From the IMG/VR virus record IMGVR_UViG_3300035190_000668: a stretch of 20,000 nucleotides of DNA; one strand, 5' to 3'. Positions 166 to 20,000 of this stretch are shown in pieces. The notes beneath the pieces were generated by a model that was not told the origin of the DNA, did no database searches, and was given only the letters and a program-made list of their open reading frames with translations. The stretch is from an uncultured virus (IMG/VR IMGVR_UViG_3300035190_000668) (Duplodnaviria > Heunggongvirae > Uroviricota > Caudoviricetes). Position 1 is the first letter of the stretch, and the number at the start of each line of letters is the position of its first letter. The position numbers and the translations under genes were made by a program.

Positions 166-807
166 TTAATGAATCCAGTGTTGTGGAACCATATACTTAA
201 AGCCACTCTTAACTAAGTGTGCTGTATGGTGATATGGAGGCGAAGGAGGGAAAACAATAACGCTTCCTGCCTCTGGCTTTACATAAAACGTAAAAGAATT
301 GTCTTGAGCTTTTGCAAGATCCATATCAGGGTGAGGTCCACCATTATACATTGGTCCGTCAGGTGATCCGATTGTAAATGAAATCTCTCCGCCTTCGTAA
401 TCATCATTTAAGTACATTACAAAAGAAACCTTTAGTCTTTCATCCCCTTCTTGTTGGTCAAAGTGTGCCCCCATGTATGTTCCTGCTTGATACTTCTTAA
501 TAGGGTACATATCAAAAAGTTTTGGTTCTTCTGTAATACCCTGAGCTTTTGCATAGTCTCTAGCTACAACATCAAAAGCATCTTTTAAGGTATTGTAGAT
601 ATAATCATTGTTAGCATCTTTAATTCCCTGAGATTCTGAAGAAGATATGCTTCTATCAGTTCCATACACATAATGCTCCCCGCTGCATGCAGCCCATTCG
701 CCCCAGTTTGTTGACTCATCGCCTTCAATTGCAGCCATTAACTTCTTTGGATCTTCAATTACGTTTGTGTAGTAGTAGACCTTTTCTTCTAGGATGTTTT
801 TATTCAT
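166..807 (-). CDS. 2OG-Fe(II) oxygenase, prolyl-4-hydroxylase-like
   Basis: HFD...YLNDDYEGGEI...FPP...HHTA..V.SG.K: HxD...H iron triad plus a basic 2OG-binding residue. Confidence 0.9.
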   Translation of the reverse strand: MNKNILEEKVYYYTNVIEDPKKLMAAIEGDESTNWGEWAACSGEHYVYGTDRSISSSESQGIKDANNDYIYNTLKDAFDVVARDYAKAQGITEEPKLFDMYPIKKYQAGTYMGAHFDQQEGDERLKVSFVMYLNDDYEGGEISFTIGSPDGPMYNGGPHPDMDLAKAQDNSFTFYVKPEAGSVIVFPPSPPYHHTAHLVKSGFKYMVPQHWIH

Positions 808-820
808 CTGTATTCTCCAT

Positions 821-1483
821 TCATGAGTACTTGTTGTCTTGATAAAAGTTTGAAACCTTTACAAATCCTACTATAACATATCTTATGGGTCCTTCTCCAA
901 CATGCTTAACGCCATGCTCATGCTCTTCATCCCCTGGGAAAAACAGCAAATCTCCTGGTTTTGGCCTCAAAGATATATCAAGATTTGGAAAGAAAATTTC
1001 TCCATCTATATACTCATCGTTTAAATAAATTATAGTGGCATATTTTATTGATGGGTCTGTATGTTGATCTGTGTGAGACTTTAACTCTACGCCTGGCTGC
1101 ATTCTTTGAATTGTTGCAAGTCCGCTCAAGTTTAACTCTGGATCACACTGTGTAACTATATCATTAAGCCTATCATAAAATATTTTTTGTTCTTTATGAT
1201 TTGTAATATTTAAATTTTTATCAACCCAGTTTTGAGTAATTTCAAATTTGCCTTCAGCAACAAGGTTATCAACATCATCTCTTCCAAATTTTTCTAAACA
1301 AAAAATTTTTAAGTTGCTCATATATTCTACTTCCCAATCTGCTTGGGATGCCCCATCTATTATATTTAGAACAAAATCAAGCTCATCTTTGTTTAAGAAG
1401 TTTTTTATACAAATTATATTATTTGTAATTTCTTCAAATATAAAGTTGTCTTCTTTAAGTTTTTCCTTAAAGGTTTCAAGCAT
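821..1483 (-). CDS. 2OG-Fe(II) oxygenase, prolyl-4-hydroxylase-like
   Basis: HTD...YLNDEYIDGEIFFP...HGV..V..G.IRY. Start placed at ATG 1483, which overlaps the upstream stop; 1495 is an alternative. Confidence 0.9.
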   Translation of the reverse strand: MLETFKEKLKEDNFIFEEITNNIICIKNFLNKDELDFVLNIIDGASQADWEVEYMSNLKIFCLEKFGRDDVDNLVAEGKFEITQNWVDKNLNITNHKEQKIFYDRLNDIVTQCDPELNLSGLATIQRMQPGVELKSHTDQHTDPSIKYATIIYLNDEYIDGEIFFPNLDISLRPKPGDLLFFPGDEEHEHGVKHVGEGPIRYVIVGFVKVSNFYQDNKYS

Positions 1484-2231
1484 TTGGAATCTCATCAGAC
1501 TTGTACTTATTTCCGTCCTTGTCTAATTTCCAGCCTTGCTTCAATAGCTCTTGCCACTCTGCTCTTTCAATTTCTTGCTTTGCCCTAGTTTCTTTCATTT
1601 CTGCTGCCCAAGCATCTCTAACTTCTTGAGGGTAAGCATCTTCTTCTCTATCATCCCAAAAAGATCCTATAGTATATCTTACACCACTAGTAATAAGAGA
1701 TACTTCGTGCATATTATTAAATCCTCCGTCAAAAACAGCAAGCATTCCAACCTTTGGTTGAATCTCTATATTTTGATCTGGGAATCTAAGAAGTCCGCCT
1801 TCAAATTCATCATTAAGGTATAAAAATCCAGCATATCTACTTCTTGTAAAAGCACCAGAGTTTCCGTGCTCATCAGTGTTGTCAGAATGTACTCTAGCGT
1901 ATGCTCCTGGCTCCCATTTTTGTGTATGGTATCCAATCTTTGAAATTATTTTTGGGTCAAGATCATGTACTGATGCAATTGCTTCTGGCATTATTTTTTC
2001 AATATCTGAAAAAATTGTTGGTACCAAACCAGCGTCAACAACTTCTTGATCATTGTCTTGTGGTAGCACAGATGAGTATGACTCATAAAAAGATATTGGC
2101 ATCCAAGAAAGCTTGCCATTTTCTGCCTGAGCATCTAAAGCATTAACCATTTTTTGACACTCTTCTTTACTTATAAAGTCTTCATAAACAACTATGTCTT
2201 TTGTTAACCTTACTTTATTATCTAGGTTCAT
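1476..2231 (-). CDS. 2OG-Fe(II) oxygenase, prolyl-4-hydroxylase-like
   Basis: HSD...YLNDEFEGGLLRFP...HEV..ITSGVRY; ATGA overlap with the upstream gene. Confidence 0.9.
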   Translation of the reverse strand: MNLDNKVRLTKDIVVYEDFISKEECQKMVNALDAQAENGKLSWMPISFYESYSSVLPQDNDQEVVDAGLVPTIFSDIEKIMPEAIASVHDLDPKIISKIGYHTQKWEPGAYARVHSDNTDEHGNSGAFTRSRYAGFLYLNDEFEGGLLRFPDQNIEIQPKVGMLAVFDGGFNNMHEVSLITSGVRYTIGSFWDDREEDAYPQEVRDAWAAEMKETRAKQEIERAEWQELLKQGWKLDKDGNKYKSDEIPNA

Positions 2232-3094
2232 TTGATCCTTCTTTCTTTTTCGGCACTGATTTTATTTGGATGATCATCTCTAAACTTTTGCATAATGTCT
2301 GGCTGCATTTCTGCCCAAAGAGCAGACCCAAACTCTTTTTCTTTTTCAAACCATTCGGCATCTCCAGGGGAGTACTTCATCCAGTACATTCTTGATAAAT
2401 ACTTATTTGATCCAGTGGCTGGCATTACTCCATGAAGATATACGGACCCATTCTTTTTTAATATATCTGGGTGACCTGATGGGAACACCAAAAAATCTCC
2501 CGCCTCTGGCTTATACATGTAGGCTTCTCCATCAACTATAAAGTCAATCTCTCCACCTTCATAGTCATCATTAAAATAGGCAAGTGCCGTTATTGCAAAC
2601 TTATATCCTGGACTAACGATAGGCTCTCTAATATAGTCAGAGTGGTATGTCATTGCAACTTCATCCTGAATGTCTGTTCTATACCTTGCAATTGAAGGGC
2701 CAGTCATTCTCCACTCTTTTATGGGCTCTCCGCTATTTGTTAAAACATCTCTTTCTGTGTCAAAATCAACATTGTTTTTAACGGCATAGTCTTGTGTTAC
2801 TAAATAAAAGTTTTTAAATAGTTCTAAAATTGCTAGCTTTTGTTTTTCTTGTTTTTCTGTTTTTGTTTCTATAGCCTCAATATACTCTATTGAAAGACCG
2901 TGTGGATGATTTGCAAAAGTTGGGTTTAGGTATGTACCAAATAGTGACCACTGTGTCCAAGGACTAAACAAGCCATCATCTTCTCCATTAGAGTTTTTTA
3001 GTTCTGAATATGTTGAATCTATATCTTTAAAAACATTCTTGTATACAAAAATTTGAGGATAGATTTCAATTGGATCTAAAACTTTTTCTGTCAT
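2228..3094 (-). CDS. 2OG-Fe(II) oxygenase, prolyl-4-hydroxylase-like
   Basis: HSD...YFNDDYEGGEI...FPS...HGV......KY. Start moved from 3130 to ATG 3094 (MTEKVL), which gives an ATGA overlap with the upstream stop. Confidence 0.88.
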   Translation of the reverse strand: MTEKVLDPIEIYPQIFVYKNVFKDIDSTYSELKNSNGEDDGLFSPWTQWSLFGTYLNPTFANHPHGLSIEYIEAIETKTEKQEKQKLAILELFKNFYLVTQDYAVKNNVDFDTERDVLTNSGEPIKEWRMTGPSIARYRTDIQDEVAMTYHSDYIREPIVSPGYKFAITALAYFNDDYEGGEIDFIVDGEAYMYKPEAGDFLVFPSGHPDILKKNGSVYLHGVMPATGSNKYLSRMYWMKYSPGDAEWFEKEKEFGSALWAEMQPDIMQKFRDDHPNKISAEKERRIK

Positions 3095-3765
3095 GGCTTT
3101 CTGTCTCCTGTATGCTCTGTTATTTCCCAAAAGAAAGGACAGGTATATCTAACTCCACTCTTAATTTCTGTTACTCCGTGAATATAATTCATATCACCTG
3201 GGAAAAAATAAGCAGCGCCTTTCTTGGGCTTAAACTGAACACCTTGTTTTGGGAAGTATAACTCTCCACCTTCATAATCTTCATTCAAATAAAACAGACT
3301 TGACAGATCATAGTTTGGAAAATCGTTTGGAAGTCCAGCATCTGGACCTTCGTGCAGTTCTTTGTCTGCGTGAGGGTTTTGAAACTGTCCTGGAAGCCAT
3401 CTAACAATTGTTGTTCCAGTTGGAATAACTCTTACTTTATAAAACTCTTCAACAATTGGCTTTAGTCTTTGAAACAAACCTGCAATAATTGGAGCAATAG
3501 CTGGATCATTTTTATCTAAAGATGGGCTTGTGCAAACTCTATCTTTCCAATAATCAGAGTCATAGACAACTGTTCCATTTTCATTAACATGACTTTCTGT
3601 TACATCCCATATAGTTAAAGATTTTGCAGCTTTTTCTAAAAACTCCATCTCTTCTACAGTCATAAAATTTTCCAGCTCAACGATCATGTCTTTCCCATCA
3701 CCAAACCAACCAGAAGGGGTTAAAGATGGCTTTCTAACCACAACAGATGCATTTATATTATCCAT
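3091..3765 (-). CDS. 2OG-Fe(II) oxygenase, prolyl-4-hydroxylase-like
   Basis: HAD...YLNEDYEGGELYFP...HGVTEIKSGVRY. Confidence 0.9.
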   Translation of the reverse strand: MDNINASVVVRKPSLTPSGWFGDGKDMIVELENFMTVEEMEFLEKAAKSLTIWDVTESHVNENGTVVYDSDYWKDRVCTSPSLDKNDPAIAPIIAGLFQRLKPIVEEFYKVRVIPTGTTIVRWLPGQFQNPHADKELHEGPDAGLPNDFPNYDLSSLFYLNEDYEGGELYFPKQGVQFKPKKGAAYFFPGDMNYIHGVTEIKSGVRYTCPFFWEITEHTGDRKP

Positions 3766-3767
3766 AA

Positions 3768-4499
3768 TTAGATTATACCATTTCCTTTGTTAGTACGACT
3801 ATCAATCACAGAAAGCCTTAAAGCCTTTACTTCGTGACTACCCAAAGATTCTCCTTTTTCATTTACTGCATCTCTATACCAGTCGGTCCATGATCCAGAA
3901 GAGTTTACAACTTGTGCTGCAGTTCCATAGGAAACATTTGCATCCATTCTTTTTCTATCTTCGTCTTTGTAGTCAAGTATCTCAATAGAAGAATTGTTTA
4001 GGGTTGATAAAGAAATGGGTATTATTGTTGCCAATGGAGTATGTGCTTTAATTGTTACTTTTTCCCCTGACTTTTTTGCTTTTATTGCAAGTGGCAAGGG
4101 ATTATCATAAAAAGATGTACTGATAAGGTTAGACATAGTTTCAAAATCATTGCTAAAAAAGTTTACTGGGTTTATGGTAAGCATGCTTATGTCTTCAGAT
4201 GTTCTAAAAACTAATCCCGTGTTTAGGCTTATGGTTGACTGACCTCTTCCACCGTAAGAACCTTCTGGTGCTTTAATTATCTCAATATGATCTTGAGTTT
4301 GATCGTTTATGCCATCCCAAACAAACTCTATGTCTTGGTCACAAGAAAGGCTCCAGCCAACCACATTTGATTGTGTTACTGGAAAGCACCTATATGCGTG
4401 ACCTTCTGATGTTTCATCCATCCAGTCTCTTTTTATTGACATTGGCAAAATACTAAATGATGAACCATTCATCTTTTCAGCAAATATATTTAACATCAC
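3768..4499 (-). CDS. DUF6065-like protein
   Basis: KRDWMDET...HAYRCFPVTQSN..GW motif resembles DUF6065; P.ATIIPI near the C-terminus; no HxD...H triad. Confidence 0.65.
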   Translation of the reverse strand: MMLNIFAEKMNGSSFSILPMSIKRDWMDETSEGHAYRCFPVTQSNVVGWSLSCDQDIEFVWDGINDQTQDHIEIIKAPEGSYGGRGQSTISLNTGLVFRTSEDISMLTINPVNFFSNDFETMSNLISTSFYDNPLPLAIKAKKSGEKVTIKAHTPLATIIPISLSTLNNSSIEILDYKDEDRKRMDANVSYGTAAQVVNSSGSWTDWYRDAVNEKGESLGSHEVKALRLSVIDSRTNKGNGII

Positions 4500-5155
4500 T
4501 CTGCCTCTGGAACGTACATCTCTGGAGTATGAAACTTTTTGTTATAGTCTAACATCGTAACAATTGAATATTTTGTTCCTGATGTTACTGGCATTGCTTT
4601 ATGTGGATACATAAAGTTTGAAGGGAATATATAGAGATCTCCAGCTTTTGGCTTAATCTTTAAGTCTTGTAACCTAAAGTACAATTCTCCACCTTCGTAA
4701 TCATCGTTTACATATGACACTAAAGAAACAGTACAGTTATAAGAAAACCCGTGGTCGTGGTGCTCCTGAAAATGTTGACCTGGGCCATACTTGATAAAGT
4801 TAAAAGCTTCCCAATACTTTAAATCCATAATGTTATAGTCTTTTCTATAGTCTTCAACTGCTGGGGATTGTGCATCATATACATCTTGCCACAGTGATTG
4901 AAGATTTAAAGATGTCTGACTCTTATCTTGCTCAATATCTGTTTTTTTAAATTTAAAGTCATTGCAGTCTCTATATTCTGGCATTAACTGTTGGTATCCT
5001 ACATAGGCAGGAAGCCAACTATATCCAGTTTTATCTCCTACTGGCTTTAAGTTAGACTCTAATCTTCCTATTACGTCAATATCACTTTTGATTACATCTC
5101 TATAGCAAACAATACCGTTGCCTAGATTTTCTTTTGAGCTCCAAGTGTTCATCAT
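4496..5155 (-). CDS. 2OG-Fe(II) oxygenase, prolyl-4-hydroxylase-like
   Basis: KYGPGQHFQEHHD...YVNDDYEGGELYF...FPSNFMYPHKAMPVTSGTKY. Confidence 0.92.
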   Translation of the reverse strand: MMNTWSSKENLGNGIVCYRDVIKSDIDVIGRLESNLKPVGDKTGYSWLPAYVGYQQLMPEYRDCNDFKFKKTDIEQDKSQTSLNLQSLWQDVYDAQSPAVEDYRKDYNIMDLKYWEAFNFIKYGPGQHFQEHHDHGFSYNCTVSLVSYVNDDYEGGELYFRLQDLKIKPKAGDLYIFPSNFMYPHKAMPVTSGTKYSIVTMLDYNKKFHTPEMYVPEAE

Positions 5156-5161
5156 TACCCC

Positions 5162-5941
5162 TTATTTATATTCTCTTCTAGTCCAGACATGGTTTTTATA
5201 AATACCGCCATCTGGTTGACGGTAGAATTTCATGTTATTCATCATTTTATCATAAATTTCTTTGTCTTTTAAAAATTCTAACTTATGATCCCAGTTTTCT
5301 CTTTTAAAAGGAAGGATCTGCAAGTATGGTGTTCCTGCTGGTATTGTTCCTTCCCAATCTTTTGCTATAAAAAACGGAAATGTTCCTAATAGATGAACCT
5401 TGTCGCTATCTACAATTCCTGTTGTATTCATAAAAGGTAGATCAAATCTATTCATTGGAGTCATAAACAAAGCGCTGTATCCTTCAGGTAGCTCTATGCC
5501 CCATCCTGAGTACCAGGCAAAGTGATCTTTATAAAATCCTTCTGGATGCTCAAACTGAGGCATTGCAAGTCTTCTTGTACAGAAATCTTTGTTTTTAGGA
5601 TCATCAATTTTTACATCTATTGATCCTTCTGGTGTTTTAAAGAATGTAATATCACATGGTGTTTTTAAAACATACCCTGTTGAAAAACCATCCATAATTG
5701 CTGGGCATGCCTTCCAAGTTGGTATCTTTCCGTAATCATCTGTAGTTCCTTCTTTTGGAAAGGGACACACCTCTTTAGGTGCTTTATAGTATTCACCATT
5801 AGGCATTTTTGCAAATCTATCTGCATCTTTATACCATTTTGGAATTTCATTTTGTGTTGGAGTCGGAACTGATGGGTTTTCAGAATTTACCCAAGATCTA
5901 TAAGATCTAAATATTGCAGTCTGCGATATTTGTTCAGTCAT
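5162..5941 (-). CDS. Conserved phage protein, DUF6065-related (IPxWYK...KxCP type)
   Basis: IPKWYK...TWKACPAIMD...GY...P.NRFDLPF...GIVDSD...GTPYLQILPFKRENW; TAATG coupling to the upstream gene. Confidence 0.55.
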   Translation of the reverse strand: MTEQISQTAIFRSYRSWVNSENPSVPTPTQNEIPKWYKDADRFAKMPNGEYYKAPKEVCPFPKEGTTDDYGKIPTWKACPAIMDGFSTGYVLKTPCDITFFKTPEGSIDVKIDDPKNKDFCTRRLAMPQFEHPEGFYKDHFAWYSGWGIELPEGYSALFMTPMNRFDLPFMNTTGIVDSDKVHLLGTFPFFIAKDWEGTIPAGTPYLQILPFKRENWDHKLEFLKDKEIYDKMMNNMKFYRQPDGGIYKNHVWTRREYK

Positions 5942-6654
5942 TACTTATGACCTATCTCATTTATATCTGTCATAATAACAACACAATATTTTGTACCAGA
6001 CTCCATTGGAAGTGAGGCATGCTCATAAATATAGTTTGATGGAAATACTGCTATGTCTCCAACTCTTGGTTTGTATACCAAGTTATCTAGTCTTGGAAAC
6101 TTTAAATCCCCGCCAACATAGTCATCATTTATATAGATCACAGCAGAAACTGTGCAATTATAAGCAGGCCCATGGTCTGCATGAATATTAAAATGTGTGC
6201 CAGCACCTTCATATTTTACAAAGTTAAAAGCTTCGTAATACACTACATTAATGCCCCAATACTGTGCATAATCATCTATACAATACTTTAGTTTTTGATA
6301 AATTTCTTCATGCAGATCTATTAATTCAGAGTTATACTCATCTCTTGGCCCTAAGTTTTCCTGTTTATATTTAAAGTCTACTGCGTCCCTTGCTTTTTTA
6401 ATTGGAACTGTAGAGTTTGTTACTTGTGCTTCTGACCACTTATACTTGGAACCAGTTGACAAATTGGACTCAAGGGTGTTGATATATCTTTTTGAATCCT
6501 CTAAAGAAAATGTGTTGTGGTACACATGTAGACCTAGCCCTAAATTTTCAACAATAAATCTATTGTCTAGCACTCTTTCGGGCACTCTGTTTGATGCTGT
6601 CTCTGACCTGTCTTTTGTAAACCATGGGTTTTCATTTTCATTGTAGATATCCAT
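5941..6654 (-). CDS. 2OG-Fe(II) oxygenase, prolyl-4-hydroxylase-like
   Basis: HAD...YINDDYVGGDLKFP...FPSNYIYEHASLPMESGTKY. ATG 6654 follows GGGGTGG; GTG 6663 is an alternative. Close paralog of 4496-5155 (shared EAFNF.KY and YNCTVS). Confidence 0.92.
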   Translation of the reverse strand: MDIYNENENPWFTKDRSETASNRVPERVLDNRFIVENLGLGLHVYHNTFSLEDSKRYINTLESNLSTGSKYKWSEAQVTNSTVPIKKARDAVDFKYKQENLGPRDEYNSELIDLHEEIYQKLKYCIDDYAQYWGINVVYYEAFNFVKYEGAGTHFNIHADHGPAYNCTVSAVIYINDDYVGGDLKFPRLDNLVYKPRVGDIAVFPSNYIYEHASLPMESGTKYCVVIMTDINEIGHK

Positions 6655-6674
6655 TGTTACCACCCCTTTATTTT

Positions 6675-15915: not shown

Positions 15916-16101
15916 ATGGCTTACACTGTAACACTAGAAACCTTTTCAGGTTCAGTAAAGAAAATCAACCTACCTTCAAGAGGTGCTGTTGCTCAATTCG
16001 TATCACAATACCCTAACACTTTACCTGTTGGCGTATCTGTTAAAGTCGCTTGCGACACTCTAGGAATTACTGGAACACTAAGAGGAAAGGCTTCACTATA
16101 A
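15916..16101 (+). CDS. Hypothetical protein
   Basis: GAAAGGA RBS; TGTCAG promoter at 15861-15882. Confidence 0.7.
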   Translation: MAYTVTLETFSGSVKKINLPSRGAVAQFVSQYPNTLPVGVSVKVACDTLGITGTLRGKASL

Positions 16102-16304
16102 TGAAAATTGAACACAACCTAAAATTCGTAACTGAATTTCAAGAGGGCCACCCTGTAACTGCAACAATGAGTTCACTACCTGAAACACTACGCATTCAAA
16201 TGCTTGAGTCAATGCTAAAAGAGTTAATCGCTCCAAAGTTAGGACCTATCCTTGATGAAATTAACGCAGGCGGGTCCTATGCAATTCTTAAGGTGGCAGA
16301 CTAA
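16101..16304 (+). CDS. Hypothetical protein (67 aa)
   Basis: Start moved to ATG 16101 (TAATG overlap). Confidence 0.7.
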   Translation: MKIEHNLKFVTEFQEGHPVTATMSSLPETLRIQMLESMLKELIAPKLGPILDEINAGGSYAILKVAD

Positions 16305-16531
16305 TGCCAATGACACGAAAAGACTATGTGGAAACTGCAAGCATTCTAAATAAGTTTTCTAACAAAATTGACTCACTAGAATTTCAAGATTTAGTTTTTG
16401 AATTTAGTGAGTGGTTTGCTTCTGACAATCCAAGATTTGATGAAGATAAATTTTATTCTGCTTGCATGGTAGATGAACAAGATGTGTTTGCACACATGCA
16501 ACAATCAACAAGATACAATCCTAACTTGTAA
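16304..16531 (+). CDS. Conserved small phage protein
   Basis: MTRKDY...A.....F..DNPRFD..KF..AC pattern, recalled from small phage ORFs; TAATG overlap. Confidence 0.75.
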   Translation: MPMTRKDYVETASILNKFSNKIDSLEFQDLVFEFSEWFASDNPRFDEDKFYSACMVDEQDVFAHMQQSTRYNPNL

Positions 16532-16536
16532 AATAA

Positions 16537-16564
16537 AAATCCTAAGCATGATTTAAAACTGCTT
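16537..16564 (+). ncRNA. Small H-type pseudoknot motif, copy 1
   Basis: AAATC-ctAAGCAt-GATTT-aaaac-TGCTT. Confidence 0.55.
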
Positions 16565-16593
16565 GATCTTTTCAAATAAAAAAGCTCGGGGGG

Positions 16594-16614
16594 TTTTCCA
16601 CAGGCTGTGGATAA
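16594..16614. promoter_or_regulatory. Inverted pair of DnaA-box-like 9-mers
   Basis: TTTTCCACA-ggc-TGTGGATAA; the second 9-mer is a perfect reverse complement of TTATCCACA. Confidence 0.5.
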
Positions 16615-16756
16615 GTTTACGTGGTTGTGATTTTTCTCACATTTATTGAGCGTCTCACTATTTAAGACTACTCGCTAGTAATTAGATTTTTGTCAGTCTG
16701 CCATGATAGGATTACAGAGTAATAAAGTAATTAAACAAAAAGAAAGAGGTTGCCAC

Positions 16757-16966
16757 ATGGCTACTAAACTATACACAATAGAAAACCTACTTGTAGGAAA
16801 AACTTATCGCTCACGAAACCGCCACTTTGAGGGTGTAATCACACACGCAGAAAAGCGTGAAGGAATTTGGTATGGAGAAAATACTGAGGCGTATGTCGTA
16901 CAGATTGACACGCCTTCCTATTTGTCAGACCGCTATGCTACTGTTGCAGTAAAGATTGGAGAATAA
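16757..16966 (+). CDS. Hypothetical protein (69 aa), possibly an SH3-like barrel
   Basis: ATG 16757 follows GAGGT; TGTCAG promoter at 16691-16712. Confidence 0.7.
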   Translation: MATKLYTIENLLVGKTYRSRNRHFEGVITHAEKREGIWYGENTEAYVVQIDTPSYLSDRYATVAVKIGE

Positions 16967-16969
16967 ATA

Positions 16970-17146
16970 ATGAACGCTTGGGATTGCATGGATTGCTATG
17001 ATGAGGGTGTCCTATTTTGGGGTAGCACTAATGGCGAATACGATACAGATTTTTGTGAGTGTAACAAGGGTGTTATGCTTTACAACGAATACACCGCATG
17101 GTACGCTAGTAATGAATTAAACGAATACACATTGGAGAACGCATAA
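16970..17146 (+). CDS. Small zinc-ribbon-like protein (58 aa)
   Basis: MNAWDCMDCYDEG...FCECNKG; GGAG RBS; TAATG coupling. Confidence 0.65.
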   Translation: MNAWDCMDCYDEGVLFWGSTNGEYDTDFCECNKGVMLYNEYTAWYASNELNEYTLENA

Positions 17147-17361
17147 TGGAATACTTATACTCTGTCACCGCTACCTATGACTCTGCCTCTGCACCAGTTT
17201 GGATTGGTCGCTACTCAGATGCTTTAACTGCCGTTGAAACTTTTCAGCAATTTGTTGATAGTGGAGATGCTAAAGAATACGCAACAATTAACTTATCTGA
17301 ACCTTCAGGCAAGATGCACACAAAAACCCTCTACACTACAGGATTGGTGGTAACACGATAA
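17146..17361 (+). CDS. Hypothetical protein
   Basis: TAATG-coupled at both ends. Confidence 0.7.
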   Translation: MEYLYSVTATYDSASAPVWIGRYSDALTAVETFQQFVDSGDAKEYATINLSEPSGKMHTKTLYTTGLVVTR

Positions 17362-17681
17362 TGGGAAGTAACTTCGCAACAGACTTAGCAGAAAACATTG
17401 ACATAAGCCTTGAACAGGCTATTGGTTATCACTTACAGGGTAATCACTATCCACCAGTACCTCTAAGCATGGTGCCAGTATGCATACAGGCTATTGACTT
17501 TGCTCATGAGGATTTGTGGGACGAGACTATTGAAATGCCAGATGGTATTTCTTATAAGGGCTTAACCGCTGCACCAGTTTGGGCTATCATTGAGCAACAC
17601 CACCTTCACGCATGGCTACCAGAAAACGTTGAAGACTATGAAGAAGACCTAGGATTTGAATTAGGATTGGGGCTTGAATAA
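17361..17681 (+). CDS. Conserved hypothetical phage protein
   Basis: HLQGNHYPPVP...AIIEQHHLHAWL, His-rich; TAATG coupling. Confidence 0.75.
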   Translation: MGSNFATDLAENIDISLEQAIGYHLQGNHYPPVPLSMVPVCIQAIDFAHEDLWDETIEMPDGISYKGLTAAPVWAIIEQHHLHAWLPENVEDYEEDLGFELGLGLE

Positions 17682-17852
17682 ATGCCGTCTAAAGCACCAA
17701 CAGCACTTTCTGCAAAACATTCAGGCCAGTCAAGGTATCAAGGACAAAGTAAAATATCAGAACTTAAAATGCTATACTCAAAAGGTAATGGCTATGAGGG
17801 TCGCTATAACTTTCCAGTTACAATAACTAAGATTGAGGATAATAATAAATGA
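17682..17852 (+). CDS. Hypothetical protein (56 aa)
   Basis: MPSKAPTALSAKHSG...; starts right after the previous stop and has an ATGA overlap with the next gene. Confidence 0.6.
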   Translation: MPSKAPTALSAKHSGQSRYQGQSKISELKMLYSKGNGYEGRYNFPVTITKIEDNNK

Positions 17853-18082
17853 GTGCTACAATAAATGACATGGAACTTGTAAAAGCTGATTCGCTAACTG
17901 TTGATGCGTTAGAGATTGGTGATCTAATTGGTTATGATGATGACATCGTTGAAGTAACTTTCATTGAATGCGATGCAACAGGAGATAACTATGACATTGA
18001 AATCACAAATGATTTTGGTGAAACAGAAATGATTCAGTTTGCATTTGATGAAGAAGTTGATTGGTACGTCTACTTAGACTAA
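17849..18082 (+). CDS. Acidic hypothetical protein, possibly KOW/SH3-like
   Basis: LEIGDLI pattern; GAGG RBS. Confidence 0.7.
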   Translation: MSATINDMELVKADSLTVDALEIGDLIGYDDDIVEVTFIECDATGDNYDIEITNDFGETEMIQFAFDEEVDWYVYLD

Positions 18083-18159
18083 AAGGGGCCCGAGGCCCTG
18101 TGATCTACGCCACAATTACGTAAGTTGATATTTTCTCCCATTTCTGGTAAGATTATTAC

Positions 18160-18300
18160 ATGAAGAAAAATAGTGAGGAATTAAGACGATTAATGGAATT
18201 ACGTCGTTCTAATGCAGCCTCCGCTGTCCCAAATAAAAAGAAATACAATAGAAAAAAATGTCAGTCCCTTATGCTAAAATTAAAGAAAGAAAGCGAGTAG
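18160..18300 (+). CDS. Small basic protein (46 aa), leaderless
   Basis: MKKNSEELRRLMELRRSNAASAVPNKKKYNRKK...; ATG 6 nt after TTGATA-17-TAAGAT (18125-18153). Confidence 0.6.
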   Translation: MKKNSEELRRLMELRRSNAASAVPNKKKYNRKKCQSLMLKLKKESE

Positions 18301-18305
18301 CCACC

Positions 18306-19028
18306 ATGACAAAATTACTCAGAAGCAAAGATAGGAAAGTAGCAAATGCCGTCACCCCTAATGGAAAACAAGCAAGTATCGCCAACACGTTTGGTCTCCC
18401 CGCAGGAAAGTCTTATTCATGTCCTGGAGCGACTAGCGTATGCGAGAGTGTTTGTTATGCTGGCAAATTGGAAAAAGTATTCCCAACAGTAAAGAAAAAC
18501 CTATTGCACAATTGGGAATTAGTCAAAAACGCAGACCATGACACTATTGAAGCATTGCTTGAAGAGATGATTAAAGATTTCAAGGCTGATTGTGTAAAGC
18601 GTGAAGCGCCTATGCTATTTCGTATTCATTGGGACGGAGATTTCTTTAATGATACTTATACATTCGCATGGAAGCATGTCATTCTTAATCATCCTGATAT
18701 TCAATTCTGGGTATACACTAGAGTGAAGAGTGCAGCGGTAATGCTTAAAGACATTGCTAATCTTTCTTTATACTATTCTACGGATAGTGAGAATAAGTCT
18801 ATTGGCGTTACCCTGAAAAAAGATCATGGCATAAAGCTTGCTTACCTTGCTAAGAATTTCTTAGTAGGACAGGCAGACATGAAAGAGATGATTGGTAAGG
18901 TAGGGGCTAAGTGCCCTGAGAATAAAAAAGCCATTCCCCTAATCTCAACAAATGGAAGCGCTTGCGTTTCTTGCTCATTGTGTGTATACTCAAAGAGCGA
19001 CATAGTATTCTCATCAAGTAAGAAATGA
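18306..19028 (+). CDS. Gp88-like (Gene88 family) Cys-rich protein with a radical-SAM-like motif
   Basis: FGLPAG..YSCPGAT.VC..VCYA...FRIHWDGDFF...FW.YTR...CP...AC..C.LC. Start moved to ATG 18306; own TGTCAG promoter at 18259-18280. Confidence 0.75.
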   Translation: MTKLLRSKDRKVANAVTPNGKQASIANTFGLPAGKSYSCPGATSVCESVCYAGKLEKVFPTVKKNLLHNWELVKNADHDTIEALLEEMIKDFKADCVKREAPMLFRIHWDGDFFNDTYTFAWKHVILNHPDIQFWVYTRVKSAAVMLKDIANLSLYYSTDSENKSIGVTLKKDHGIKLAYLAKNFLVGQADMKEMIGKVGAKCPENKKAIPLISTNGSACVSCSLCVYSKSDIVFSSSKK

Positions 19029-19036
19029 GGAGATAA

Positions 19037-19096
19037 ATGGAAAGCCTAGTTATCCTATCTTTAATAGGGCTATTAGTCTTGCTAGTTAACCAATAA
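19037..19096 (+). CDS. Hydrophobic micro-peptide (19 aa)
   Basis: MESLVILSLIGLLVLLVNQ with a strong GAGGAG RBS. Confidence 0.5.
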   Translation: MESLVILSLIGLLVLLVNQ

Positions 19097-19217
19097 TGTG
19101 ACATAAATCACACCCACAAGCGTCTCAAATAGTGAGAAATACAAGAAATGGAGTTGAAAAATGTCAGTAGGAAATGTTATACTTAATACATACAACAAAC
19201 TAAAAAGGAGAAACAAA

Positions 19218-19385
19218 ATGACAGTAGCAACAAACACATACAAGGTAGGCGACCTCTACACATCACAGAAGTCAAAGGTAACAGGAACAATTCTTGAAAT
19301 CTCACCTACTGCAAAGGACACAGTTCGTGTGAAGTTAGATGTAAATGGCAACACACGCTGGACAACATGGAAGGCTAATGCGTAA
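19218..19385 (+). CDS. Small KOW/SH3-like protein (55 aa)
   Basis: ATG 19218 follows AAGGAG; YKVGDL...GTILEI...VRVKL. Confidence 0.7.
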   Translation: MTVATNTYKVGDLYTSQKSKVTGTILEISPTAKDTVRVKLDVNGNTRWTTWKANA

Positions 19386-19399
19386 TTAGTTAGTTCTAT

Positions 19400-19426
19400 G
19401 TCCTGAGCATGACTCTAAACTGCTCA
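19400..19426 (+). ncRNA. Small H-type pseudoknot motif, copy 2
   Basis: GTC-cTGAGCAt-GAC-tctaaac-TGCTCA. Confidence 0.55.
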
Positions 19427-19490
19427 CACTAAAAATGTCAGACCCACCCCCTATACTATAAATAAACCACCAAAAGAAAAGAGAAAACAC

Positions 19491-19916
19491 ATGGCAAGAA
19501 ACGGGAAATCAATCTCAGTAAAAATCGCAACACCAAAGGTAATCAAGGCACTAGAAACTCGTCTAGCAGAACTAGAAACTAACTACGCTAATCAAGAAGC
19601 AAACGAAGCAAAATACACAAAGGCTTTTGAGAAGTATAAGAAAGAACTTATTGCTTATGCCGTTGCTAACATCAAGAAGGCAGAGAACTTTCGCACAAAC
19701 TATCGCACATGGAACAACACACTTAACATTGACTTTGACTTAACAGTTACAGAGTCAGAGTTACCAAAAGAACCTCAGCGTGAGTTTGAGCAAATGGGTC
19801 GTCATACCTACCTAGAGCAGAAGCAAGAAATTGAGAACGCAATTCGTATTCTCAAGATGACAGATGAGGAAGTAGTTAATACAAGCACTTACAATGCTAT
19901 TGCTCGTTACCTGTAA
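19491..19916 (+). CDS. Hypothetical coiled-coil protein
   Basis: 141-aa helical ORF; TGTCAG promoter at 19436-19457. Confidence 0.75.
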   Translation: MARNGKSISVKIATPKVIKALETRLAELETNYANQEANEAKYTKAFEKYKKELIAYAVANIKKAENFRTNYRTWNNTLNIDFDLTVTESELPKEPQREFEQMGRHTYLEQKQEIENAIRILKMTDEEVVNTSTYNAIARYL

Positions 19917-19923
19917 TGAGATA

Positions 19924-19989
19924 ATCGTTCTCGCATAACGATAAATTGCGACCTCCTGAGCATGAGGCTAAACTGCTACCCGTAAGGGT
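19924..19989 (+). ncRNA. Tandem pseudoknot motif copies 3 and 4 plus a GNRA hairpin
   Basis: ATCGTT-cTCGCAt-AACGAT-aaat-TGCGA; CCTC-ctgAGCAt-GAGG-ctaaac-TGCT; ACCC-GTAA-GGGT. Confidence 0.55.
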
Positions 19990-20000
19990 GCTGGATCAAG

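Follow-up and report, generated by a model that had tools for sequence, protein, structure and literature searches.

A compact H-type RNA pseudoknot behind stop codons in an uncultured phage recurs across viral and prokaryotic genomes

Coremin (xrRNA-C) and its Watson-Crick variant (xrRNA-WCC) are RNA elements of beny-, cucumo- and other eukaryotic RNA viruses (PMC6546385, PMC10520033, PMC10321173). As these papers describe it, coremin (published 20-mer GUCCGAAGACGUUAAACUAC) consists of a 4-bp hairpin (hp1) whose loop follows YGAD (4 nt) or YGNNAD (6 nt), a spacer of conserved sequence and a second, indispensable hairpin (hp2). The spacer is 8-10 nt long (UUAAACUAC), nucleotides 18-20 interact with the loop, the G position of the loop must be kept, and hp2 is absolutely required for resistance to Xrn1; in xrRNA-WCC, loop GAG pairs with spacer CUC (PMC10321173). 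Coremin arrests Xrn1, a 5'-to-3' exoribonuclease, one nucleotide ahead of hp1, holds up ribosomes during scanning and, in vitro, promotes -1 frameshifting; a heptaloop, CGAGUAA, is likewise Xrn1-resistant, and tandem copies are usual for xrRNAs. The same sources name the luteoviral -1 frameshifting pseudoknots of the beet western yellows virus type as the structural analogue of coremin, and a flaviviral xrRNA has been described to halt the bacterial RNase J1 in vitro (PMC5760640). Here, we report a computational analysis of a compact H-type pseudoknot that is present in four copies in a 20,000-nucleotide stretch (the window, by which we mean this stretch at its full length) of an uncultured Caudoviricetes virus (IMG/VR record IMGVR_UViG_3300035190_000668), with an emphasis on its structure, its distribution and its position relative to genes.

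The consensus element is 26-30 nt long and runs, from 5' to 3', through stem 1 (S1; 3-6 bp of any sequence), C, UGAGCA, U, the 3' strand of stem 1, N(0-3)AAAC and UGCUCA. Stem 1 usually has 4 bp with a C-G closing pair, and the hairpin loop is 8 nt, C-UGAGCA-U. Its first C forms loop 1 (L1), UGAGCA/UGCUCA forms stem 2 (S2), a single U (or C or A) forms the junction, and N(0-3)AAAC forms loop 3 (L3). That this motif is a structured RNA element, an H-type pseudoknot with genuine covariation, is strongly supported by the behavior of both stems. The viral scan pattern, CTGAGCATN{3,10}AAACTGC, leaves stem 1 unconstrained and returned at least 133 matches at no fewer than 126 loci. Among the 133 matches listed, stem 1 pairs at three or more consecutive positions in 109, compared with about 5% by chance, and the gap has an identical length of 6 nt in 89; in a scan of one genome per prokaryotic species, stem 1 is paired in 84 of the 123 matches listed. 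All four stem 1 pairs covary in a gapless alignment of 86 viral copies, where the unbiased figure for this stem is 109/133 because three of the four covarying pairs were pre-filtered.

Stem 2 was tested with a covariance model, R1, that was built from copies foreign to the window and contained no knowledge of this stem. A search of the 6-kb flanks around exact matches, 702 kb in total, yielded 145 hits. Both-sided changes were found at three of the six pairs (10 cells) and wobble changes in 11 cells at the five inner pairs, to which the outer U-A pair adds 13 U-G. Overall, 94.9% of the stem 2 cells are paired, the unpaired ones comprising one at pair 11-68, five at the hairpin-adjacent A-U pair (15-64) and 34 at the outer U-A pair. 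The variants among the hits include CUAAGCAU with UGCUU in six copies (copy 1 of the window included), CUUAGCA with UGCUA in two, CUGAACAU with UGUUC, CUGAGUAU with UACUC and CUGGACAU with UGUCC. For the structure as a whole, shifting the partner by one to three columns reduces pairing to 26-41%, and none of 500 shuffles reached the observed percentage paired, the both-sided pairs or cells, or the covariation score; the count of further pair types was reached by 9 of 500. A general descriptor (stem 1 of at least 3 bp, an 8-nt loop starting with CY, AAAY and five complementary bases) matched 137 sites in the 702 kb, against 3-8 in block shuffles. An initial annotation, made from the letters of the window alone, had postulated a structured RNA with covariation and had proposed searches with a covariance model or a descriptor; these searches, the stem 1 pairing, the compensatory changes in stem 2 and the shuffle controls all bear the claim out.

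Several features of the element vary little. The loop reads C-U-G-A-G-C-A-U in 91 of the 137 descriptor hits, and other loop lengths remain at background, except for a 7-nt form, CUCGCAU (with TGCG), which was seen twice in a set of 73 loci, once as copy 3 of the window. In the alignment of hits (A2), stem 1 is closed by C-G in 140 of the 141 rows that carry letters on both sides; at the second pair, 78 rows have U-A and 49 have A-U, and G-C is the most frequent third pair (60 rows). AAAC is invariant by the design of the search; in the covariance-model hits, the linker reads N(U/A)AAAC and then U, and the pairing of the bases past AAAC with the loop is backed by compensatory changes. Judging from luteoviral and coremin-type pseudoknots, the C, U and AAAC, which are conserved though unpaired, probably contact the grooves and thereby hold the two stacked helices in place. 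Nested folding with RNAfold cannot show the knot and chooses stem 2 alone in copies 1 and 2.

A rare variant has AAAAGGCUCA in place of AAACUGCUCA as its 3' half (L258:7186-7220, L279:8196-8230, L310:6718-6752, L284:5071-5105 and L281:5471-5505) and continues as ...CUCACCA in three of the five copies, reminiscent of the 3' end of a tRNA. Such an end is not supported for the main family, in which A follows UGCUC in 74 of 108 copies, C comes next in 47 of 108, and ACCA was found by eye in a handful.

In the window, the four copies that the initial annotation had placed at 16537, 19400, 19924 and 19952 were all recovered at these sites on the plus strand (Table 1). Stem 1 differs in every copy yet pairs, and the loop-tail pairings are right as that annotation had written them. 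It had also put three of the copies 6-15 nt past stop codons, with the fourth abutting the third; by our measurement, stem 1 of copies 1, 2 and 3 starts 6, 15 and 8 nt past the last base of TAA stops at 16529-31, 19383-85 and 19914-16, respectively. R1 recovered copies 1, 2 and 4 together with two copies beyond the window, every one with E <1e-7, and missed copy 3. Copy 1 carries a G-C to A-U variant of a consensus stem 2 pair, which recurs in other phages, and the loop-tail helix of copy 4 has only 4 bp because a G stands opposite an A at the fifth position. In seven other loci (L009, L018, L047, L098, L099, L121 and L131), a knot with a different stem 1 sequence occupies the position of copy 2 ahead of a homologous downstream gene. 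A loose pattern, GCATN{3,10}AAAYTGC, matches the window four times against 0.20 expected, and 0 of 200 shuffles reach four matches, a comparison that is post hoc in that the pattern was derived from the four window copies themselves.

The viral contig that contains the window is 50.5 kb long, with 36.8% G+C and an estimated completeness of about 47%. The loose pattern has five forward and no reverse matches in it. All six contig copies lie on the plus strand, within 5.2 kb of small early-type plus-strand genes, and no copy was found in the minus-strand block of the contig or in its other 26 kb. What comes after copies 1, 3-4 and 6 is not a gene but promoter-like sequence; one such site, TTGACA-17-TAGAAT, lies just past the end of the window.

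Table 1. Pseudoknot copies and other features of the window and its contig. Coordinates are those of the window unless marked as contig; scores are those of the covariance model.
Feature	Coordinates	Strand	Structure or product	Score or context
Pseudoknot copy 1	16537-16564	+	S1 AAATC/GATTT, loop CTAAGCAT (RNA CUAAGCAU), L3 AAAAC, tail TGCTT; S2 AAGCA/UGCUU	33.4 bits, E 6.5e-8
Pseudoknot copy 2, consensus form	19400-19426	+	S1 GTC/GAC, loop CTGAGCAT (RNA CUGAGCAU), L3 TCTAAAC, tail TGCTCA; S2 UGAGCA/UGCUCA	43 bits, E 1.1e-10
Pseudoknot copy 3, variant	19924-19951	+	S1 ATCGTT/AACGAT (6 bp), loop CTCGCAT (7 nt), L3 AAAT, tail TGCGA; S2 UCGCA/UGCGA	
Pseudoknot copy 4	19952-19977	+	S1 CCTC/GAGG, loop CTGAGCAT (RNA CUGAGCAU), L3 CTAAAC, tail TGCT; S2 AGCA/UGCU	34.5 bits, E 3.1e-8; abuts copy 3
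Pseudoknot copy 5, beyond window	contig 24222-24256	+		after DUF932 gene; ends 2-4 nt before tRNA-Asp(GTC)
Pseudoknot copy 6, beyond window	contig 23010-23044	+		after 139-aa gene and small hairpin
ORF upstream of copy 1	16304-16531	+	75 aa; weak PHROG match, function unknown	TAA stop
ORF upstream of copy 2	19161-19385	+	74 aa; alternative start 19219	TAA stop 14 nt before copy 2; homologue ahead of the motif in L136
ORF between copy 2 and copies 3-4	19491-19916	+	141 aa	TAA stop 7 nt before copy 3
Small hairpin before copy 6	contig 22990-23013 (L253:4991-5014)		TAGTAGGGGGCTACTA	holds TAG stop of upstream gene
Module after copy 1	16565-16700			
Module after copy 6	contig 23045-23110 (L253:5046-5111)			
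DUF932 gene, copy 5, tRNA-Asp(GTC)	contig 23205-24331 (L253:5205-6332)			
Nine adjacent genes	166-6663	-	oxygenase and endonuclease families	
gp88-like gene	18258-19028	+	Cys-rich protein, 240-256 aa	phrog_1392

The motif is abundant both in viral contigs (at least 126 loci) and in prokaryotic genomes (at least 121 loci). By record title, the true-looking genome matches listed include many from Saccharibacteria, Clostridia and Lachnospiraceae, Chloroflexota, Bacteroidota, Thermodesulfobacteriota and Actinobacteria, some from Proteobacteria, others from Akkermansia, and two from Methanobrevibacter metagenome-assembled genomes (MAGs). The matches listed span phages and genomes labelled with at least 10 bacterial phyla and one archaeal genus, where the assignment of hosts is soft because most genome matches are MAG contigs; a few, such as a conserved coding site in Pseudomonas, are probably due to chance. 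Neither this wide spread nor the likeness to coremin had figured in the initial annotation.

That annotation could assign the motif to no known family, and the searches agree. Rfam release 15 gave no match at the gathering score for the window, unrelated chance matches only for 16300-20000 at E <=10, no match at E <=10 for a 56-nt query (19385-19440), and none over the motif in 20 motif-bearing bacterial loci, where two tRNAs in L204, downstream of the motif, were the only matches. A literature search by 9-10-letter motif words and by topic returned no description of the element, and the word matches listed (20 of 358) were all unrelated primers. The pseudoknot is real, very widespread and in no catalogued RNA family, and its novelty is high with respect to the literature searched. 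The preQ1-I riboswitch (RF00522) and the 5' domain of the pistol ribozyme (RF02679) share with it an H-type fold of 30-35 nt in which the loop pairs past an A-rich tail; unlike these, the motif matches neither at E 10 and has no P2/P3 domain, no conserved downstream sequence and no location in the 5' leaders of queuosine genes.

Among described elements, coremin comes closest in sequence. The phage consensus, N-GUC-C-UGAGCA-U-GAC-N-UAAAC-UGCUCA, has the same preferred 4-bp hairpin GUC...GAC closed by C-G, as is evident from the pair counts of the hit alignment and from copy 2 of the window, which carries GUC...GAC itself. It also shares the loop-initial C, a single pyrimidine that serves as loop 1, the loop-final A-U (or A-A) and the A-rich linker UAAACU, with loop-pairing bases just past AAAC that show compensatory changes, as in the coremin spacer. 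The GAG/CUC helix of xrRNA-WCC lies within the GAGCA/UGCUC of the motif, and a rare loop, CUGAGUAA, resembles the resistant heptaloop CGAGUAA. Tandem copies, intergenic sites and proximity to stop codons are likewise common to both. The 8-nt loop, CUGAGCAU, fits the Y and the A-D of the coremin loop, but its second base is U where coremin needs G, so that it falls outside YGAD/YGNNAD. No counterpart of hp2 was found: a hairpin of at least 4 bp starts 0-2 nt past stem 2 in 21 of 276 copies, compared with 25 and 32 in controls, and the mean folding energy of the 30 nt past the knot is no lower than in controls. Stem 2 has 5-6 Watson-Crick pairs, as opposed to the 2-3, partly non-canonical pairs of coremin. 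Finally, the hosts are phages and bacteria, which lack Xrn1, and the motif is anchored to the upstream stop.

Because two defining features fail, namely, the second loop base and hp2, we do not file the motif as a member of coremin. It may nevertheless work like coremin, with a stem 2 of 5-6 bp that could replace what hp2 provides. A further step would be to regard it as the prokaryotic counterpart of the coremin xrRNA class, possibly of common origin, that is, a protein-independent stop for enzymes or ribosomes on RNA; we consider this possible but on the unlikely side. Were it so, bacteriophages, bacteria, an archaeal genus and the RNA viruses of eukaryotes would have a single core of about 28 nt in common, which would connect bacterial with eukaryotic viral RNA biology. 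The motif would then be the first RNA of programmed nuclease resistance to be described in bacteria and their viruses, as well as a portable message-boundary module.

The luteoviral knots are H-type pseudoknots of less than 30 nt, with a loop 1 of 1-2 nt that starts with C, a junction U, an A-rich loop 3 along stem 1 and a spacer of 5-8 nt from the codon in the ribosomal A site. The motif resembles them in its compact H-type size, C-first loop 1, single junction U, A-rich loop 3 and spacer; it differs in that it follows a stop codon rather than a slippery heptamer and is present in multiple copies per genome. Recoding by -1 frameshifting or readthrough was considered and rejected: no X XXY YYZ heptamer was detected by eye, without a systematic scan, in the sequences ahead of the window copies (...CTTGTAAAATAA, ...GTTAGTTCTAT, ...GTAATGAGATA), the knots follow stops in short intergenic spacers, and no frame continues past a knot in the window.

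The genomic context of the knot is informative with regard to both strand and position. The knot acts on the transcribed strand, given that 132 of 137 copies have the orientation of the coding strand that dominates around them, as do the uniformly plus-strand copies of the contig. It is anchored to the end of the upstream gene. The gap between the stop and stem 1 is 30 nt or less in 78 of 137 copies, with a sharp cut-off below 4 nt and a peak at 5-6 nt (one copy at -3, none at 0-3, four at 4, 12 at 5 and 10 at 6, followed by a long tail); a separate count on the first viral scan produced the same peak. The distance to the next start of an open reading frame (ORF) is broad, with a median of 112 nt and mild peaks at 20 and 23 nt. 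Of the copies with both neighbors close by, 81 lie nearer to the stop and 20 nearer to the start, the median gaps being 15 and 76 nt. The knot also precedes RNA cutting sites: a same-strand tRNA (Asp, Ser, Arg or Met) starts within 100 nt downstream of 10 of 195 copies, in eight of these at 4-13 nt, whereas only one of the 195 copies has the end of a tRNA within 100 nt upstream. In the 6-kb set, which is not independent given that some of its contigs are already in the 195-copy count, a tRNA lies downstream in nine copies, all of them tRNA-Asp, and upstream in none. The 12 nt past the knot are poor in G (14% vs 21% further on). Among copies whose neighboring genes point in different directions, convergent gene ends are more numerous than divergent starts (10 vs 4), by ORF calls that are crude for gene directions as for stop codons.

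The 92 genes that were analysed ahead of the knot are of diverse kinds, with 21 DUF932, five Hsp20, two ribonucleotide reductases, a DNA polymerase, a methylase-helicase and others, and 57 have no Pfam match. The order DUF932 gene, knot, tRNA-Asp seen around copy 5 is found in nine viral loci (L253, L257, L258, L265, L266, L281, L291, L301 and L310), some of which are related contigs, and also in the genome locus L245.

These observations narrow the function to a ranked series of readings, namely, a 3' cap, a 5'-to-3' shield, a ribosome insulator, and a binding site or ribozyme, every functional step of which we infer. The reading that we tentatively favor is that the knot is a cap for the 3' end of the upstream message and a landmark for its processing. 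The 3' untranslated region of the upstream gene would open with the knot, which would serve as a mechanical cap. The transcript would run on or be cut downstream, either by RNase P where a tRNA adjoins or in the G-poor stretch past the knot. Exonucleases working 3' to 5' would then trim back and halt at the knot, so that the message keeps its stop codon and gains a stable 3' end at a defined position. With the knot starting no closer than about 4-6 nt past the stop, a terminating ribosome could reach the stop without unfolding it, and where the 5' end of a tRNA lies 4-13 nt downstream, the RNase P cut would make the knot the new 3' terminus. We rank this reading first because all direction-telling signals of the context point to the upstream gene, namely, the anchoring to stops, the pre-promoter position in this phage, the position at tRNA 5' ends, the G-poor, cleavage-prone stretch past the knot and the excess of convergent over divergent neighbors. 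Among the functions offered in the initial annotation, a 3' exonuclease block or processing signal is accordingly the one that best fits the context statistics, its mechanism being our own construction.

Known message-end structures provide a possible functional parallel. In MALAT1 and MEN-beta, 3'-end triple-helix elements (elements for nuclear expression, ENE) precede RNase P cleavage at a tRNA-like structure, and bacterial, phage and chloroplast 3' stem-loops act as processing and stability signals in repetitive extragenic palindromic (REP) elements, T7 RNase III sites and plastid inverted repeats. The likeness would consist in a structure at the message end that is turned into the 3' terminus by a downstream cut, made here plausibly by RNase P 4-13 nt past the knot, and that guards against 3' exonucleases; the known cases are hairpins or U-rich triple helices with other sequences, so the analogy is purely functional.

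Several points weigh against the 3' cap. In our judgement, a pseudoknot of 4+6 bp is no obviously strong barrier to 3'-to-5' exonucleases, and coremin, the closest look-alike in sequence, blocks enzymes that move 5' to 3'. For the 97 of 137 copies that sit between two co-directional genes, a 3' and a 5' role are indistinguishable by context. Terminator-like hairpins are no commoner after the knot (10/276) than before it (7/276). A purely mechanical role does not explain the strong sequence conservation of stem 2. The relatives in RNA libraries (85-99% identity, four runs compared) are assembled contigs that say nothing on RNA ends, expression or habitat; apparent joints in them, from the end of a knot to the start of a tRNA, turned out to be mapping artefacts of the repeated motif in relatives with a knot-then-tRNA order.

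If the 3' cap, or a related role in message survival, is correct, phages and bacteria of many phyla share a tiny protein-independent RNA device that sets the end or the survival of messages. This would be a new and very common class among the few bacterial mRNA stability elements and could explain how early transcripts are shaped in phages without canonical terminators; at less than 30 nt, it would also be a handy part for synthetic biology, to insulate or stabilize cistrons.

The first competitor, which we regard as unlikely, is a coremin-like roadblock in the opposite direction, where the knot would halt RNase J or a similar enzyme arriving from the upstream cistron and so shield the message or tRNA downstream, in the manner of xrRNAs in eukaryotic RNA viruses. 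The likeness to coremin described above, including the GAG/CUC helix shared with xrRNA-WCC and the loop CUGAGUAA, points this way, as do tandem copies such as 3-4, the usual arrangement of xrRNAs, the arrest of RNase J1 by a flaviviral xrRNA in vitro (PMC5760640), and the 44 of 133 copies in which the next ORF starts 40 nt or less away. The missing hp2 and the U at the second loop position speak against it, as does the tie of the knot to the upstream stop rather than to the downstream start. Furthermore, at three sites in this phage and behind several bacterial knots there is nothing downstream to shield because only a promoter-like stretch or a terminator comes next, and a knot 4-13 nt before a tRNA shields nothing beyond what RNase P would remove anyway. 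Copies are also present in gammaproteobacterial MAG contigs (L192, L202 and L206, with the uncertainty of MAG binning), and gammaproteobacteria, to our knowledge, generally lack RNase J.

Less probable still is an insulator of ribosomes, whereby a knot at the mRNA entrance of a ribosome with the stop in its A site would block readthrough or post-termination sliding and thus uncouple neighboring cistrons, tRNAs or downstream structures from the translation upstream. The minimal distance of 4-6 nt equals the spacer used by frameshift-stimulating pseudoknots, although it is a minimum from which the distances trail off to 30 nt or more and not a fixed distance. The effects of coremin on ribosomes, which include the stalling of scanning ribosomes and, in vitro, -1 frameshifting, agree with such a role, and in bacterial micro-ORF loci, described below, the stop codon lies inside the knot. 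UGA, the leakiest stop codon, is avoided before the knot, with 7 of 83 as opposed to 106 of 418 untagged genes followed by a gap of at least 40 nt (odds ratio 0.27, p 5e-4); this count depends on crude ORF calls, and the avoidance is equally expected if the tagged genes are simply highly expressed. No slippery sequence was found by eye at the window copies and some others, a scan that was not systematic, and no extended frame follows downstream in the window.

The least probable of the four readings is a recognition site or a catalytic RNA, that is, a site for a protein, a small-ligand aptamer, or a tiny self-cleaving or endonuclease-guiding element that would split polycistronic transcripts. 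The unpaired C, U and AAAC and the sequence of stem 2 are far more conserved than pairing alone demands. Small ribozymes in phages are found in several copies per genome, between genes and beside tRNAs, as is the knot, and in a switch-like viral sub-family, stem 2 overlaps an anti-Shine-Dalgarno hairpin. Since the motif spans many phyla after unrelated genes (at least 10 labelled bacterial phyla and one archaeal genus among the matches listed), a phage-specific protein partner or a gene-specific ligand is disfavored. Rfam holds no matching ribozyme or riboswitch even at E 10 for the 56-nt query, and the element, at about 28 nt, is below any natural self-cleaver known to us.

Further candidates were also considered. 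The initial annotation had suggested a termination signal and an antitoxin-mimic pseudoknot as well, and neither fits: no U-tract terminator accompanies the motif, none comes after any copy on the plus strand of this phage, no plus-strand terminator-like site lies beside the window copies, and the family counts after and before the knot are those given above. There is no array of 34-45 nt repeats as in ToxI-like type III antitoxins, only single dispersed copies and one two-copy tandem (3-4), in many phyla and beside unrelated genes; no search was made for a toxN-like gene. A riboswitch is unlikely because the copies are many per genome, at gene ends and after unrelated genes, and a site acting at the DNA level is unlikely because the strand bias follows transcription and the pairing changes are compensatory.

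A recurring stand-alone unit was noted in bacterial genome and MAG loci of several phyla (L140, L146, L156, L160, L198, L201, L204, L219, L235 and L243). It consists of a promoter-like site, a strong Shine-Dalgarno sequence and a Cys-containing micro-ORF of 18-26 codons (...PR.AHC.EGC...), the last codons and TGA stop of which lie inside the pseudoknot (UCC UGA), and an intrinsic terminator comes next in several of the loci. The arrangement has the look of a conserved small-peptide or leader unit built on the same knot. In the viral sub-family mentioned above (L032, L036, L086, L102 and L113), a hairpin, CUCCUUAA...UUAAGGAG, shares bases with GCUCC, the 3' strand of stem 2. This hairpin would sequester the Shine-Dalgarno sequence of the next gene, and a translational switch in which knot and hairpin are mutually exclusive is possible.

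Around copies 1 and 6, two further arrangements were observed. The small hairpin directly before copy 6, in which the TAG stop of the upstream gene is embedded, is kept in relatives, and the same arrangement is present in L008, L112 and L196. Copies 1 and 6 are then followed by a shared module composed of an A-run, CTCGGGG, a short palindrome (CCACAG-G-CTGTGG or GTGAT-ATTG-ATCAC) and a -35-like TTTACG, with comparable modules after the knot in L008, L010, L047, L097, L099 and L112; it is probably an operator-promoter cassette of this phage group.

As for the other genes of the window, the 141-aa ORF between copy 2 and copies 3-4 has no family match, and tblastn against cultured phages found nothing for it, nor did megablast of 16000-20000 against the same phages. 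The nine adjacent minus-strand genes form a tandem paralogue array that is unusual at this size: seven match 2-oxoglutarate (2OG)-Fe(II) oxygenase PHROGs (phrog_61/phrog_81) and/or the 'DNA endonuclease' families phrog_2297/phrog_274. Of these seven, six match an oxygenase family, the gene at 821-1495 matches only the endonuclease families and phrog_3531, and the other two match phrog_7084. The Cys-rich protein encoded ahead of copy 2 (Table 1) is about 50% identical to gp88 of mycobacteriophage L5 and matches 391 records of cultured phages, mainly actinophages, all at <60% identity, of which 283 are from Mycobacterium, 101 from Streptomyces, four from Fromanvirus and three from Synechococcus phages.

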